Below are positions 816-13,442 of a DNA stretch of 33,994 bases, piece by piece. The translations under genes and the position numbers were made by a program. Under the pieces are notes generated by a model. It made no database searches, was not told where the DNA came from, and saw only the letters and a program-made list of their open reading frames with translations. Source of the stretch: an uncultured Streptococcus sp. (GTDB taxonomy: Bacteria > Bacillota > Bacilli > Lactobacillales > Streptococcaceae); contig CAURHZ010000001.1 in assembly GCA_963524345.1 (NCBI GenBank), positions 1 to 33,994 on the forward strand. Reading direction: 5' to 3'. Positions within the stretch are counted from its first letter, which is position 1; each line of letters begins with the position of its first letter.

Positions 816-1304
816 ATGAAACCAGTAATTTCCATTATCATGGGCTCAAAATCTGACTGGGCAACCATGCAAAAAACAGCAGAAGTCCTAGACCGCTTCG
901 GTGTAGCCTACGAAAATAAAGTTGTTTCCGCTCACCGTACGCCAGACCTCATGTTCAGACATGCCGAAGAAGCACGTAGTCGTGGTATCAAGGTCATCAT
1001 CGCAGGTGCAGGTGGCGCAGCTCATTTGCCAGGTATGGTCGCAGCTAAAACAACCCTTCCAGTCATTGGTGTGCCCGTAAAATCGCGTGCCCTTAGTGGT
1101 GTGGACTCGCTCTACTCTATCGTCCAGATGCCAGGTGGAGTGCCTGTCGCAACTATGGCTATCGGTGAAGCAGGTGCGACCAACGCTGCCCTCTTTGCCC
1201 TTCGTATCCTATCAGTAGAGGATCAGTCTATCGCGACAGCATTGGCAGATTTCGCAAAGGAGCAAGGAAAAATCGCAGAGGAGTCTACCAATGAGCTCAT
1301 CTAA
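816..1304 (+). CDS. purE: N5-CAIR mutase (AIR carboxylase catalytic subunit)
   Basis: [28 protein letters not shown] motifs; AAGGAG RBS at 805-810. Confidence 0.98.
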
Positions 1305-2382
1305 AACAATCGGAATTATCGGTGGCGGCCAGCTGGGTCAAATGATGGCCATTTCTGCTATCTACATGGGCCACAAGGTTATCGCGCTGGATCCTGCTGC
1401 AGATTGCCCGGCCTCTCGCGTGGCGGAAATCATCGTGGCACCTTATAATGATGTGGAGGCCCTCCGTCAATTGTCGGAGCGTTGTGATGTCCTCACCTAT
1501 GAGTTTGAAAATGTTGATGCTGACGGTTTGGATGCTGCTATCAAGGAGGGACAACTACCTCAAGGGACAGATCTCCTTCGCATTTCTCAAAATCGTATTT
1601 TTGAAAAGGACTTCCTCTCAAACAAGGCTCAAGTCACTGTAGCACCTTACAAGGTTGTGACTTCTAGCCAAGACTTAGCAGATATCGATTTATCGAAAAA
1701 CTATGTCCTCAAGACTGCGACAGGTGGTTACGACGGCCATGGTCAAAAGGTTATTCGCTCAGAAGCAGACTTGGAAGAAGCCTACGCTCTAACTGACTCA
1801 GCGGACTGTGTTTTGGAAGAATTTGTCAACTTTGACCTTGAAATCTCTGTCATCGTGTCAGGAAACGGCAAGAATGTGACGGTTTTCCCAGTTCAGGAAA
1901 ATATCCACCGCAATAACATCCTATCTAAGACCATTGTGCCAGCCCGCATTTCAGAAAGTTTAGCAGAAAAGGCTAAATCTATGGCTGTGCGAATCGCTGA
2001 ACAGCTTAACTTGTCTGGAACTCTCTGCGTGGAAATGTTTGCGACAGCTGATGATATTATCGTCAATGAGATTGCCCCGCGTCCACACAATTCAGGACAC
2101 TACTCAATCGAAGCCTGTGACTTCTCCCAGTTTGATACCCATATTCTAGGAGTTCTGGGAACACCATTGCCAGCCATTAAACTGCATGCGCCTGCTGTTA
2201 TGCTCAATGTCCTCGGCCAACACGTCGAGGCTGCTGACAAATATGTCACAGAAAATCCAAGCGCCCACCTCCACATGTATGGTAAAATAGAAGCAAAGCA
2301 CAACCGCAAGATGGGACATGTGACTTTGTTTAGCGATGTGCCAGATGAGGTTGAGGAGTTTGGGAAAGGGATTGAATTTTAG
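1291..2382 (+). CDS. purK: N5-CAIR synthetase (ATP-grasp)
   Basis: [38 protein letters not shown] motifs; overlaps purE. Confidence 0.98.
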
Positions 2383-2388
2383 GAAAAT

Positions 2389-3138
2389 ATGAAAAAATAT
2401 TTAAAAAACAACATAAAACAGCTGATATTTTTATTGTTACTAGTGATGGCATCTGGTCCCTTTTTCTCAGCTGTTATAGGAATTTTTTCCAATTATTTGA
2501 ATTCTGGATTGGGTGATTGGTTGAGCTTTTATGGAAGTGTCGCTGGAATTGTAATCTCATTGATTGTTGTCCATTTACAATTATCACTCGAAGAAGAAAA
2601 GGAATTACGTAAGTATCGACCAGAGTTGGTTTTAAGCAATGATTATCAGCTTATCAAGCCAAACTGTAGAGTATATTTTGATGATAAATATTGGTTTCAT
2701 CTACGAAAATCAGAAAATAACAAACAATATGTAGCAGCTAATAGTTTTGAAGAATCTTATTCTAATGAGGATAAAAGAGATAAAATTTTATCTCTTGAAA
2801 TTGTTAACAATCAACCGATATTTAATGTTCGAATCTTATTTGGAGAAAGTTTAGACGGTGAGCTGATACCAAAGTTAAATGCGGAGCAAAGATTATATGT
2901 AATTTCGAAAGCACATCAAAAAGAGATACATCAACATATCTTAGGTAACAAGCCTAATTTTAATCACGTCCCAGAGACGATTACTTTATTCTTTACAACG
3001 CTTTCTGGAGAAGTGTGTAAGTATATTTATAATGTTGATGGCAAAGGATATTGTAGCATTAATCGGAAGTATTTTGGGGTAGACTATCCTGAAGCTACTA
3101 AAAATATTCATATTTGTGACTATATTGTTAGTAAATAG
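2389..3138 (+). CDS. Hypothetical membrane protein (two N-terminal TM helices plus soluble domain), AT-rich accessory gene
   Basis: 249-aa ORF starting 6 nt after the purK stop; hydrophobic segments at about aa 12-33 and 44-65; visibly AT-rich versus pur genes. Confidence 0.8.
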   Translation: MKKYLKNNIKQLIFLLLLVMASGPFFSAVIGIFSNYLNSGLGDWLSFYGSVAGIVISLIVVHLQLSLEEEKELRKYRPELVLSNDYQLIKPNCRVYFDDKYWFHLRKSENNKQYVAANSFEESYSNEDKRDKILSLEIVNNQPIFNVRILFGESLDGELIPKLNAEQRLYVISKAHQKEIHQHILGNKPNFNHVPETITLFFTTLSGEVCKYIYNVDGKGYCSINRKYFGVDYPEATKNIHICDYIVSK

Positions 3139-3210
3139 GAGGTATTAAGTAAATTTAGTTTTTTATAGATTAATTCATTTTTTATATTTTCGCCGAAAAG
3201 GATAGAATCG

Positions 3211-3298
3211 TAGCAATTTATGATTTACCGCTGGATACTGATTTGAATACACTGGATCACTATCCATCTGTATGGATTGGGAAATAGGAGTTTGAATA
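3211..3298 (+). pseudogene. Remnant copy of the 3' third of the 75-aa gene at 4900-5127
   Basis: Translates AIYDLPLDTDLNTLDHYPSVWIGK*EFE versus AIYDLPLDTDLNSLEHYPSVWIGKEEFE; 69/84 nt identical by hand count. Confidence 0.9.
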
Positions 3299-3332
3299 TC
3301 TTAATAGGTAATATTTAGGAGTATATTTTATA

Positions 3333-4148
3333 ATGACAATTGATTTAAGAGGAGAGGTTAGATTAGCGGATGAGGCCTTGGCTTTAGATTGGTATAAAGA
3401 TAATGGCTACACTAATATAGGAGAAGCTATATGCGCTATAAAATATGGATACATAAAAAATAATTCCCTTACCTATAGTCATGTTCAACACGAAATCAAT
3501 TATTTGGTGGAACAGTTAAGAATTTATGTTGAAAATTGTGATATTATTCTTCCTGTACCTAGTTTTAATCCATTTCATAAAGATAATCCAGATGGGAACT
3601 TAAAGATTATGTACATGATAGCTGAGCGTCTAAGTGAGGTTAGTGGGAAAAAAGTTGATTTTTCTGTACTCGGAAAGCGAACATCAAAACAAGCTAAAGA
3701 TTCTCAAATCAGTGCTGATGATTATGTATCGAAAAATTTACCTAGTAATATAAAAAGTGTATTATTAATTGATGATTTATTTGGTGAAGGTAATACGGCA
3801 AATTACACTGTTTCGGCGTTAAGACGGGAAAATCCAAATATTTTTATTAGATTTATTAGTCTTACAAAAAATAAATATGGAGGCATTCCTAAAAAATATG
3901 AATGTAGAATTTCAAAATATAGTAAATTGTCTGTTAACAATGGAAGTGAGTTCATAGATTTATATTTTTATAGAGATGACAAACCTGAACACGTCAAGAT
4001 TTGGCAAGAGCACTATTTGTTCGGAGAGGTTAAGCAAGCATTTGAACAAAATGATTTTAAAAGAGTTTTTTATTTATCTGTGTATCGAAATTCTAATGGA
4101 TATTGGACTGTGAGTAAGAATGTTGATGAAGAGAGTGATGAAGAATAA
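3333..4148 (+). CDS. ComF-like type I phosphoribosyltransferase-domain protein with extra C-terminal domain
   Basis: DIILPVPS and PRPP-loop-like VLLIDDLFGEGNT motifs; AGGAG RBS at 3317-3321. Confidence 0.8.
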   Translation: MTIDLRGEVRLADEALALDWYKDNGYTNIGEAICAIKYGYIKNNSLTYSHVQHEINYLVEQLRIYVENCDIILPVPSFNPFHKDNPDGNLKIMYMIAERLSEVSGKKVDFSVLGKRTSKQAKDSQISADDYVSKNLPSNIKSVLLIDDLFGEGNTANYTVSALRRENPNIFIRFISLTKNKYGGIPKKYECRISKYSKLSVNNGSEFIDLYFYRDDKPEHVKIWQEHYLFGEVKQAFEQNDFKRVFYLSVYRNSNGYWTVSKNVDEESDEE

Positions 4149-4163
4149 CTTGAGGTGTTTCAT

Positions 4164-4805
4164 ATGAGAAAAATATTCATAAGTGGGAGTATTTCAAGCA
4201 AAGAAATTCCCCAAGAAGTTATTAAGTCAGTTGATGATAGTCGTAAAAGAAATTATACAATCTTGATAGGTGATGCTAAAGGGATTGATAAAAATATACA
4301 GGATATGCTTAAGGCAGATAATTATAAAAATGTAGAGGTTTATCATGTAGGTCCTAGTCCTAGAAACCTTTCAGATCTAGAATGGATTGATAGGCGTATT
4401 CCTGTAGACACTGAAAATGAAAAATTTTTTAAAAACGGGAAATATACTAGAGAAGCTCAAATGATAAAGGATAAAGCTATGTCTAATGATGCTGATTTTG
4501 GTTTAGTAATTTGGAAAGACACCAGTAAAAATCGGTTTGGGAATATTTCGGTAAGTAAAGGTTCATTAAATAATATTTATAATTTACTTGTCCAAAATAA
4601 ATATGTTGGACTCTTCTATATTCCTAAGCCAGAAAAAGGAATAATGAAGTTTAAGAATATAGCAGAATTTGAAGAACAGGTTATTGAAAAGCTTGTTCAG
4701 AAAGAAACAAAGGATTATTACTATAAAATGAAAAAAAATGCTAATAAATCAAATAATAAATATTCTGAACATGGTAATAATGAGCAGCTTTCCTTATTCG
4801 GCTAA
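4164..4805 (+). CDS. SLOG-superfamily (DprA/YspA-like Rossmannoid) protein
   Basis: KIFISGS...ILIGDAKGID...KDKAMSNDADFGLVIW...SKGSLNNI pattern typical of SLOG folds; GAGGTG RBS at 4152-4157 favours the ATG at 4164. Confidence 0.7.
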   Translation: MRKIFISGSISSKEIPQEVIKSVDDSRKRNYTILIGDAKGIDKNIQDMLKADNYKNVEVYHVGPSPRNLSDLEWIDRRIPVDTENEKFFKNGKYTREAQMIKDKAMSNDADFGLVIWKDTSKNRFGNISVSKGSLNNIYNLLVQNKYVGLFYIPKPEKGIMKFKNIAEFEEQVIEKLVQKETKDYYYKMKKNANKSNNKYSEHGNNEQLSLFG

Positions 4806-4899
4806 AGTTACTTTTTAGAAAAAATAAATTAGAAGAAAAGAAAGGAGCAAGGGGCCTAGTATTCACCAAGACTGAATACTATGGACTTGATTAATTCCT

Positions 4900-5127
4900 A
4901 TGATTCAAATCATCGTCAACGCATTTGTTGAAAAAGATAAGACTGGAGCAGCCGTCGAAGTCGTGTATGCTAGTAGCAATCACGAAAAAGTGAAAGCTAA
5001 GTATGAAGAGCTGCTTGCTCAATACCCTGAAAATTATTTAGCAATTTATGACTTGCCACTGGATACAGACCTGAATTCATTGGAACATTACCCGTCTGTA
5101 TGGATTGGGAAAGAAGAATTTGAATAA
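4900..5127 (+). CDS. Conserved 75-aa hypothetical protein of the streptococcal purK-purB interval
   Basis: 75-aa ORF directly upstream of purB; resembles the small gene at this position in pneumococci (from memory); coding conservation shown by the synonymous-biased remnant copy. Confidence 0.8.
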   Translation: MIQIIVNAFVEKDKTGAAVEVVYASSNHEKVKAKYEELLAQYPENYLAIYDLPLDTDLNSLEHYPSVWIGKEEFE

Positions 5128-5197
5128 TTTGGCTAATCAATGTTCTATGCTTTGTTTGCACATTGTGAAGTAGAAAAAGAAAGGAAAAATTAACAAC

Positions 5198-6496
5198 ATG
5201 ATCAACCGTTACTCTCGCCCTGAGATGGCGAATATTTGGAGTGAAGAAAATAAATACCGTGCTTGGCTTGAGGTGGAAATCTTGGCTGACGAGGCATGGG
5301 CTGAGTTGGGGGAAATTCCTAAGGAAGATGTGGCTTTGATTCGCGAGAAGGCGGACTTTGACATCGACCGTATTTTGGAGATTGAGCAGGAGACGCGTCA
5401 CGATGTGGTTGCCTTCACACGTGCAGTTTCTGAGACGCTTGGTGAAGAGCGCAAGTGGGTCCACTATGGCTTGACTTCTACCGACGTGGTGGATACTGCC
5501 TACGGCTACCTTTACAAGCAGGCTAACGACATCATTCGTCGTGACCTTGAAAACTTCACTAACATCATCGCTGAAAAGGCTAAGGAGCACAAGTTCACCA
5601 TCATGATGGGTCGTACCCACGGGGTGCACGCTGAACCTACAACTTTTGGTCTTAAATTGGCGACTTGGTACAGCGAAATGAAGCGCAATATCGAGCGTTT
5701 CGAGCATGCGGCTGCTGGTGTGGAAGCTGGTAAGATTTCTGGTGCGGTTGGAAACTTTGCCAATATCCCGCCATTCGTTGAGCAATACGTCTGCGACAAA
5801 TTGGGTATCCGTGCTCAAGAAATCTCTACACAGGTCCTTCCTCGTGACCTTCACGCTGAGTACTTTGCGGTTCTTGCTAGCATCGCGACTTCAATCGAGC
5901 GTATGGCGACGGAGATCCGTGGTCTTCAAAAATCAGAACAACGCGAAGTGGAAGAGTTCTTTGCCAAAGGTCAAAAAGGTTCATCAGCAATGCCTCACAA
6001 ACGCAACCCTATCGGTTCTGAGAACATGACGGGTCTTGCGCGTGTTATTCGTGGTCACATGATTACGGCCTATGAGAATGTTGCTCTCTGGCACGAACGT
6101 GATATCTCTCACTCATCAGCTGAGCGCATCATCACACCAGATACGACCATTTTGATCGACTACATGCTTAACCGTTTCGGAAATATCGTCAAGAACTTGA
6201 CAGTCTTCCCAGAAAATATGATTCGCAACATGAACTCTACGTTTGGTCTCATCTTTAGCCAGCGTGCCATGTTGACCTTGATTGAGAAAGGCATGACCCG
6301 TGAGCAAGCCTATGATCTGGTACAACCAAAAACAGCCTACTCTTGGGACAATCAAGTAGACTTTAAACCACTTTTAGAAGCAGATCCAGAGGTGACATCA
6401 CGCCTCACACAAGAAGAAATCGACGAAATTTTCAATCCTCTTTACTACACTAAACGAGTGGATGATATCTTTGAACGTCTTGGACTTGGTGACTAA
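5198..6496 (+). CDS. purB: Adenylosuccinate lyase
   Basis: [11 protein letters not shown] signature, [11 protein letters not shown]. Confidence 0.98.
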
Positions 6497-6550: not shown

Positions 6551-10342
<3,792 letters not shown>

Positions 10343-10348
10343 CTATTT

Positions 10349-10404
10349 TGATAACGTTTACATAAAACCAATTTAATTTTATTATCTATATAGTAAAAAG
10401 TCAA
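10349..10404 (-). promoter_or_regulatory. strH promoter with cre site
   Basis: Minus strand TTGACT (10404-10399), 17 nt, TAAAAT (10381-10376); TGTAAACGTTATCA (10362-10349) fits the CcpA cre consensus. Confidence 0.7.
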
Positions 10405-10589
10405 GTAAATTTATATAATAACTATAATAAACGGAGGAAATCATAAGATTTTGGAAATAACAACTTATATAAGGAGGTAAAATCAAGGAAAAATCAGTGA
10501 TTTTTAACTTATTTTTAGTACAAGTGCTACAAATAAATATATTTAATAATAGCGTTTTCATATTCGCCTTTTCGTGCTATAATATATAG

Positions 10590-10618
10590 AAAAAGCCTGA
10601 GCAAGGCTCAAGCTTTTT
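10590..10618. terminator. Intrinsic terminator downstream of the GntR regulator gene
   Basis: AAAAAGC-C-TGAGC-aag-GCTCA-A-GCTTTTT hairpin. Confidence 0.7.
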
Positions 10619-10619
10619 C

Positions 10620-11336
10620 TTAGTGACCACGGTTACATGAAATGAATTTGATTTTGTAGTAATCTGCTCTCTTATACGTTTCGCTGTATGCGAGAACTTG
10701 ACCAGTAGACTCTAGTTTAGTAGTCTTGGTTTGTAAAACGGTTGGGAATTGTTCATCGACTCCGAGGACCGAAGCCGCATGTTCTGGAGTTGGAAATGCT
10801 ATTTCATTGATTTCTTCAAAATGTTCATCATTCATGTGAATGTGGTAATCCAATTTGAAACGGTTATAGATAGAGCTATAATATTCAAGATTTGGATAAT
10901 TTGCGTTGACGTATTGTTCTGGGATGTAAGATGTATGGTAGATGTACACAACACCACCTGTTTCGCGTACGCGTTCAATCTTGTAGTAGAACTGATCTCC
11001 GCGTAGTCCAAGTTTTTCTAAGTAGCCTAGTTTGTTTCCACGCTCAATAGAAAGGACGGTAACTTTATCATCTTTAGTTTCAAAAACTTCTACATCTGAA
11101 AACTCTACGAGTTTGTGTTTACGTGCGCGTGAAACGAATGTACCCTTTCCTTGTTGGCGGACAATATAGCCATCCTTGGCAAGGTCGTTTAAGGCGCGGA
11201 CAACTGTGATAGAACTCACATCATACATTGCAATCAATTCAGCTTCAGTGTAGAATTTATCTCCACTGGCAAATTGACCAGAAATGATTTTGTTCTTTAA
11301 CTCATCTTTAATATATTGATACTTTGGAATTGCCAT
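10620..11336 (-). CDS. agaR: GntR/HutC-family transcriptional regulator (UTRA domain) of the bgaC-PTS-agaS operon
   Basis: N-terminal winged HTH (YTEAEL...VSSITVVRAL...QGKGTFV); divergent from bgaC. Confidence 0.85.
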   Translation of the reverse strand: MAIPKYQYIKDELKNKIISGQFASGDKFYTEAELIAMYDVSSITVVRALNDLAKDGYIVRQQGKGTFVSRARKHKLVEFSDVEVFETKDDKVTVLSIERGNKLGYLEKLGLRGDQFYYKIERVRETGGVVYIYHTSYIPEQYVNANYPNLEYYSSIYNRFKLDYHIHMNDEHFEEINEIAFPTPEHAASVLGVDEQFPTVLQTKTTKLESTGQVLAYSETYKRADYYKIKFISCNRGH

Positions 11337-11574
11337 ATTTTCACCTCGATTTTCCTTCTCAGTTAAAGATTTTACCATAAAACTGGAAAGAATAGTAGCC
11401 TTTTGAATAAAAAAATTAGAATAATAGGCTATAAGGTTAATTTACATAGGAATAAATAGAAAAACCTACATTTTTATACATGGTGCTAAAATGTTGTTAT
11501 GACTATAGATTACAAGATTTTTATAAGTTTTTTTGTAAAAATTAGTAAAAAATGAAAAAAATCGTGAAAACCTA

Positions 11575-11632
11575 TTGACAAATGTAAGATATTGAGTTAT
11601 ATTTACTATATCAACAAATGAAAGCGTAAACT
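11575..11632 (+). promoter_or_regulatory. bgaC operon promoter with cre-like site
   Basis: TTGACA (11575-80), 17 nt, TATATT (11598-603); TGAAAGCGTAAACT at 11619-11632. Confidence 0.75.
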
Positions 11633-11654
11633 TTAGTTGTCAGAAGGTAAGAAT

Positions 11655-13438
<1,784 letters not shown>

Positions 13439-13442
<4 letters not shown>

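Follow-up and report, generated by a model that had tools for sequence, protein, structure and literature searches.

In DarTG, a writer modifies single-stranded DNA (ssDNA) and an eraser reverses the modification. DarG has been described as a glycohydrolase (bioRxiv 10.1101/2025.01.08.631726), and DS-32 as a validated phage defence that joins a phosphoribosyltransferase (PRTase) to a DarG-like NADAR protein (bioRxiv 10.1101/2025.01.08.631726; PMC13092281). ShosTA combines a DprA protein with a PRTase (PMC11961720, PMC12961424); its toxin ShosT has an N-terminal hydrolase/pyrophosphatase (PPase) domain of about 164 amino acids (aa), bound phosphoribosyl pyrophosphate (PRPP) but none of the tested purines (PMC11961720), loses its toxicity upon D331A/D332A replacement (PMC11961720, PMC12961424), and uses an acceptor that the 2026 structure paper lists as an open question (PMC12961424). 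In PsyrTA/RqlHI a genotoxic ComF-like PRTase is checked by a DprA-like partner (PMC4670107). Here we analyse a 33,994-nucleotide (nt) stretch of DNA (hereafter the window) from an uncultured Streptococcus sp. (GenBank assembly GCA_963524345.1, contig CAURHZ010000001.1), in which a PRTase gene (gene A) and a gene for a SLOG-fold protein (gene B) very probably form a toxin-antitoxin (TA) defence module of some kind.

The two genes are tightly linked and AT-rich, as the preliminary description of this locus had stated: they lie 15 nt apart and have a G+C content of about 30% (30-31%, against 47-49% in the flanking pur genes). The window stems from a mitis-group Streptococcus: a contig of S. mitis matches it over 5.3 kb at 95.7% identity. 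The features of the pair are the following:

3333..4148, + strand: gene A, 271 aa; type I PRTase resembling ComF/ShosT, predicted to be the toxin ('writer')
3771..3776, + strand: D147-D148 of gene A, in the PRPP loop (DDLFGEGNT); the DD is invariant in the family PRTases (23/23)
3882..4124, + strand: residues 184-264 of gene A, its C-terminal domain, with a probable OB/S1 fold and predicted ssDNA binding; an acidic tail follows
4164..4805, + strand: gene B, 213 aa from an ATG start; SLOG-fold protein without further domains, family unnamed, predicted to be the antitoxin ('eraser')
4785..4799, + strand: QLSLF beta-clamp-binding motif of gene B, at the end of a disordered tail

Structural models and Foldseek searches bore out the PRTase and SLOG folds that had been proposed for the two proteins. 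Gene A contains a type I PRTase domain with the PRPP-binding DD loop, and ShosT is its top Foldseek match, while at the sequence level it scores 22.1 bits against the Pfam PRTase model (below the cut-off of 26.3) and gives weak PADLOC matches to ShosT (19.9 bits, E 1.4e-4) and to a retron PRTase. The same weak ShosT match was returned by all 23 family PRTases scanned, and a PsyrT match by 20 of them. The PRTase fold begins at residue 1 of 271, so that the N-terminal hydrolase/PPase domain is absent (as had been suspected); the zinc ribbon of ComF(C) is likewise missing, and family scans of the 271-aa protein found no helicase, longer fused relatives lying outside this search. The extra C-terminal domain is, judging from the model, probably an OB fold, for which sequence searches gave no relative outside its own family. 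Both genes are under purifying selection among four streptococcal alleles, with A diverging faster (ratio of nonsynonymous to synonymous divergence, dN/dS, 0.18-0.29; dS 1.4-1.7) than B (dN/dS 0.10-0.12; dS 0.56-0.82).

Gene B was modelled as a SLOG Rossmannoid fold starting at residue 1, with the ThsA SLOG bound to cyclic ADP-ribose (cADPR) as the top Foldseek match and with ShosA and DprA tied with YpsA. The family is DprA-like at the fold level only: gene B has no match to Pfam DNA_processg_A (weak ones occur in a few distant family members), has no SAM domain in its 213 aa, and found no credible match in Pfam, PADLOC, NCBIfam or the PDB sequences, those to Csf3 and RobA being rejected as chance. 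An Atlas search returned unnamed clusters, plus one in which 18% of the members carry DNA_processg_A. Identity to LOG, YpsA and the ThsA SLOG is 8-15%. Across 249 family rows (recruited by profile and partly redundant, orphans included), G8, G36, D37, G40, D42, R67, K102, D103, S131, G133 and N137 are kept in 97-100%, and the conservation of D37, D42, D103, R67, K102 and N137 suggests a catalytic pocket. The LOG-clade SLOGs cut base-ribose N-glycosidic bonds (PMC9503650). As a side observation, one plasmid record names a long form of gene B 'addiction module antidote protein', a label that may stem from its extra C-terminal part.

With ShosTA the pair shares a ComF-like PRTase, the DD...GN loop, a long pyrophosphate (PPi) loop and a SLOG-fold partner. 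It differs in that gene A is devoid of the N-terminal pyrophosphatase domain and has gained the probable OB domain, and in that a clamp motif and invariant Asp residues are found in gene B (213 aa, no SAM), whereas ShosA consists of SAM plus a DprA Rossmann domain (313 aa or more). The preliminary description had reserved the verdict of a known system for a strong ShosTA hidden Markov model (HMM) match; ShosT reached E 1.4e-4 at most, the ShosA models gave no match in gene B, nor at E<=0.001 in 47 of 47 alignment members (one distant member scored 16.6 bits), and the PsyrA models did not match gene B. The pair is not ShosTA, since both the defining features and strong HMM matches fail. Nor does the label of a divergent Firmicute variant of that system hold: the partner belongs to a SLOG family of its own, which is very large (the gene B profile finds 2161 clusters at 50% identity), and the same PRTase is found in Bacillota, Spirochaetota, Pseudomonadota (Alpha- and Gammaproteobacteria) and Binatota, i.e. 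the pair resides in at least four phyla, as well as on plasmids and viral contigs.

The likeness to PsyrTA/RqlHI (PMC4670107) lies in the ComF-like PRTase with a DprA-like partner, and the difference in the lack of a RecQ helicase on gene A and in gene B stemming from another SLOG family. DS-32 (DefensePredictor), compared by description, is also a two-gene system of a PRTase and a predicted glycohydrolase-fold partner, which is NADAR rather than SLOG; none of the 105 PRTase loci described below showed a NADAR partner. DarTG would share the writer-eraser logic as proposed here, with an ADP-ribosyltransferase (ART) toxin and a macrodomain/NADAR eraser in place of the PRTase and SLOG folds, and the donor would be PRPP, not NAD+. 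ComF(C) is set apart by its zinc ribbon, by the accessory and patchy occurrence of gene A, and by widely separated family scores: in 401 Bacillota genomes the family PRTases reached 142-237 bits, against 84 or less for the other ComF matches, presumably housekeeping ComF.

Co-occurrence of homologues of the two genes had been proposed as a check, and linkage proved to be nearly complete from the PRTase side. Searching with a proteobacterial-type PRTase alignment (25 viral loci, which overlap the SLOG-side set, plus the best 80 of 418 metagenome matches), we found a SLOG gene directly downstream in 102 of 105 loci; the other three lie at a contig edge, hence 102 of 102 evaluable loci and none in which it is missing. 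From the SLOG side (the best 80 of 147 genome loci), a related PRTase was directly upstream in 41 of 80, and in 16 of 17 viral-contig loci (the 17th at a contig edge). One protein fuses PRTase and SLOG (P0210), and six genomes of another genus of the order (L264-L269) carry the pair in reversed order. In seven of 58 linked loci a PRTase open reading frame (ORF) covering at most 131 profile positions (broken or cut) stands beside the SLOG gene; such loci, and the SLOG genes without a PRTase described below, fit a polarity in which the PRTase is the toxin. Few of the genomes searched carry the pair, namely 2 of 400 other Streptococcus and 1 of 400 other Bacillota genomes, and among 50,697 GenBank phage records there was no SLOG match and five weak PRTase matches.

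Gene B occurs without gene A in 39 of the 80 genome loci, and of the 39 distinct orphan rows 37 group in a single clade (100/100), which lies within alphaproteobacterial copies linked to a PRTase. This clade (L012-L080; L102 8001-8534), from rhizobial genomes, keeps the pocket residues and lacks the clamp motif; in the one annotated example, which a rhizobial plasmid carries, toprim and DUF2493 genes lie upstream, and an anti-defence role for these orphans is possible. Among the long fusions scanned, four of five place the gene B domain behind a PsyrA-like N-terminus, which suggests that it can stand in for a known antitoxin's DprA domain; a query with the PsyrA-N/SLOG fusion met relatives in 6 of 400 other genomes, all of them unfused. 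SLOG fusions were also noted in P0176, P0179, P0192, P0220, P0224, P0253 and P0259, to a PsyrA-like N-terminus, to YpsA, or within a 2134-aa protein with RNase H.

Plasmid records number 101 for the SLOG and 63 for the PRTase, and plasmid copies adjoin CBASS and TA genes, or restriction-modification (RM) genes. On an Enterobacter NDM-1 plasmid (L100 4344-6552) an IS3 transposase lies next to an apparently truncated PRTase gene; the SLOG gene is intact, and RM genes adjoin. Two Neisseria proteins (P0061, P0062) are 79% identical to gene B, and P0061 nests among the streptococcal copies, a placement that suggests recent cross-phylum transfer among oral bacteria. In N. gonorrhoeae (L099 5435-6546) the pair stands directly before what we take to be carB, with a presumed carA further upstream, and in Trichococcus (L006 3155-4645) just upstream of a presumed thyA; with the pur site, this makes three insertions beside nucleotide-synthesis genes in three genera.

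In the window the pair occupies the interval between two genes that we take, from their sequences, to be purK and purB:

1291..2382, + strand: purK (presumed), left hotspot anchor
2389..3138, + strand: 249-aa accessory ORF, hydrophobic N-terminus, no family match; a separate cassette
3211..3298, + strand: degraded second copy of the 75-aa ORF's 3' end, which forms a direct repeat of 88 nt (83%) with 5039-5126
4900..5127, + strand: 75-aa ORF, recurrent in the purK-purB interval; context, outside the pair
5198..6496, + strand: purB (presumed), right hotspot anchor

The preliminary description had proposed a candidate defence system, and the streptococcal purK-purB interval (window 2383-5197; L137-L156) is a defence-gene hotspot. 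Its length ranges from 311 to 5131 bp in 20 relatives, whose 57 ORFs there fall into 36 clusters, 30 of which have a single member. Scanning 35 of the 36 cluster representatives (one 62-aa ORF was left out) with a PADLOC version dating from 2023 gave matches at E<=1e-5 in seven (PD-Lambda-1, PD-T7-3, NsnA/GmrSD, AriA/Old, PDC-S15, a generic kinase and AbiU/PDC-S18), to which Pfam adds Mrr, HNH, NYN and DUF3800. A role of the pair in purine biosynthesis was rejected because relatives fill the slot with unrelated genes. The 75-aa ORF accounts for 13 of the 57 ORFs, the 88-nt repeat of its 3' end brackets the cassette, and comparable repeats occur in relatives; the repeated 3' ends of this ORF and of purK delimit cassettes (L141, L146, L151, L153, L004 and the window), which suggests cassette exchange by homologous recombination with the repeats as handles. 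Most interval clusters have no family match at all, and several look like defence candidates.

Two features had escaped the preliminary description: gene B carries a beta-clamp motif, and the PRTase has a probable OB fold, followed in one other genus by an SSB-type tail. The disordered C-terminal tail of gene B contains QLSLF, a match to the QL(S/D)LF pentapeptide and to the consensus beta-clamp motif (PMC9690074). Of 150 family members, 28 have a broadened form of the motif within their final 15 aa (on average 1.6 and at most 6 in 200 shuffles of the tails) and 11 have the form Qx[SD]LF (shuffled mean 0.14); a clamp-type motif was also present in 33 of 95 uncut further loci. In the window's own genome (71% complete) three of 1165 ORFs end in QL[SD]LF: gene B and two pieces that look PolC-like in sequence. 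When gene B residues 182-213 were modelled with the clamp of the same genome, the score was 0.75 (best control 0.00), with contacts at residues 206-212, contact agreement of at least 71% and a partner pLDDT of at least 46; of solved pairs 51 of 78 pass the mark, and of mismatched pairs 2 of 108. In all six genomes of the reversed-order genus, gene A matches the profile over its full length (E 1e-38 or better), C-terminal domain included, and has DLPF as its last residues; this tetrapeptide ends three of the 1542 ORFs of a genome of that genus, two of which are presumably SSB-like. It had been suggested that the pair acts either on PRPP/nucleotide pools or on DNA, and the clamp motif, the probable OB fold and the SSB-type tail favour fork DNA over the pools.

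We reason that gene A would be a toxin using PRPP through D147/D148 and would move ribose-5-phosphate from PRPP onto ssDNA at replication forks, while gene B, held on the beta sliding clamp by its QLSLF tail, would hydrolyse the adduct off the host DNA, as DarTG does with ADP-ribose. Phage infection might halt host protein synthesis, displace the eraser from the clamp, or flood the cell with ssDNA; the adduct would then build up, and replication of both phage and host would stall. In favour of this reading stand the linkage, the polarity, the defence setting, the replisome-type motifs, the conserved pocket of gene B and the published parallels of DS-32, ShosT and RqlH. As a whole, this chain is put forward tentatively, its chances being somewhat short of even. 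The idea of DNA modification is itself not new, because the authors who found the RqlH PRTase to be genotoxic already speculated on an altered DNA nucleotide resolved by RqlI (PMC4670107). Wider still, and somewhat more speculative, the pair could be the founding example of reversible DNA phosphoribosylation, in which ComF-like PRTases would write on replisome ssDNA and a SLOG family of more than 2000 clusters would erase from the clamp, DprA-like proteins (ShosA, PsyrA) and NADAR (DS-32) would be interchangeable erasers, and the orphans on rhizobial conjugative elements would serve as anti-defence erasers.

Several points qualify the evidence for the proposed chain. The clamp-motif expression was written after the motif had been seen, and most family members show no strict match to it; the pass of the tail-clamp model may reflect likeness rather than binding, because clamp-peptide complexes are solved. 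The SSB-like DLPF tail belongs to one lineage, the window's gene A having an acidic tail only. The orphan SLOGs represent about two events, not 39, and, contrary to the polarity of the other loci, in L269 a split gene B sits beside a gene A with intact motifs. Finally, compared by motif order and not by residue-level superposition, the gene B family keeps SxG[TS]xxN in place of the LOG motif, which reads PGGxGTxxE and includes the catalytic Glu.

The absence of that Glu suits the main rival, which takes the pair to work like ShosTA as published: the PRTase would poison purine/PRPP metabolism, and the SLOG protein would be a non-catalytic ssDNA-binding mediator, with the clamp bringing RecA-type repair to damaged forks. 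ShosT as the top Foldseek match of gene A, the tie of ShosA and DprA with YpsA in the fold of gene B, the position of the streptococcal copies inside the pur operon and the dependence of ShosA on ssDNA binding and RecA (PMC12961424) all agree with it. We regard it as unlikely, given that gene B has no SAM domain and falls some 100 aa short of the ShosA structure in length, that ssDNA binding has no need of its invariant acidic residues, that a soluble-pool target leaves the OB domain and SSB-type tail of the toxin unexplained, and that many unrelated defence genes occur at the pur site. The last two arguments recur elsewhere: the OB/SSB-like extension is equally unaccounted for if the product of the PRTase is an unusual base-ribose-phosphate, a nucleotide with a toxic or signalling effect, which the SLOG hydrolyses or senses, clamp binding then sanitising the pool at the fork. 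The cADPR-bound ThsA SLOG as the top Foldseek match of gene B, one SLOG fusion to YpsA and the free nucleotides that are LOG substrates (PMC9503650) would fit such a small-molecule scheme; a diffusible substrate makes the clamp motif needless, and ShosT bound no tested purine (PMC11961720), so that we judge it improbable.

The clamp motif acquires a different meaning if the SLOG directly binds and inhibits the PRTase and the motif has a sensing role, the toxin being freed once a phage protein has captured or stripped off the clamp (or, in a variant, if the SLOG is itself a clamp-blocking effector like SocB or RipA). RqlI binds RqlH (PMC4670107), toxins blocking the clamp are known, the genes overlap or abut (and are fused once), and the PRTase evolves faster than the SLOG. 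Such a guard is quite doubtful: PRTase-free orphans keep pocket residues that a steric inhibitor would not need, the motif is missing in many members, and no release is possible from a fusion. Least probable of all, to our mind, is that the pair plays no part in phage defence and serves as a selfish addiction module or for accessory nucleotide salvage; the plasmid records and the copies within or beside presumed nucleotide-synthesis genes of three genera speak in favour of this, and the pair's slot being filled by known defence genes in relatives, its rare and patchy occurrence (2 of 400 other Streptococcus genomes) and the status of related PRTase systems as validated defences speak against it.

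Returning to the writer-eraser reading, the pair addresses the open question of the acceptor of defence PRTases (ShosT, PsyrT/RqlH and, by extension, ComF). It is the smallest version, made of two single-domain proteins of 160-270 aa free of helicase and pyrophosphatase, both with a replisome address in some lineages, and it makes the DNA-modification hypothesis directly testable. If true, a reversible DNA mark would stand beside ADP-ribosylation, and a very large unannotated protein family would receive a name. Even if the chemistry differs, the pair is a candidate for an uncatalogued cross-phylum defence system: among the papers listed by full-text searches of the open literature (subscription journals being outside their scope), no title or abstract opening describes it, though the SLOG classification of Burroughs et al. 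(2015) may list the neighbourhood. The excerpts of PMC5512222, bioRxiv 10.1101/2025.09.30.679545, PMC12191111 and PMC12795458 do not describe the pair either. The streptococcal purK-purB interval offers a ready source of further candidate defence systems.

As for the remainder of the window, we dismissed the 249-aa ORF as a third member of the system, given that it does not accompany the pair in L004 and L005; a similar-looking ORF fills the same slot in L146. Promoter and terminator scans showed no excess (17, against 15.0 in shuffles). After purB (6551-13442) follow what we take, from their sequences, to be ordinary streptococcal genes, namely a 1263-aa wall-anchored hexosaminidase-like (strH-like) protein, a GntR-type regulator and a beta-galactosidase.
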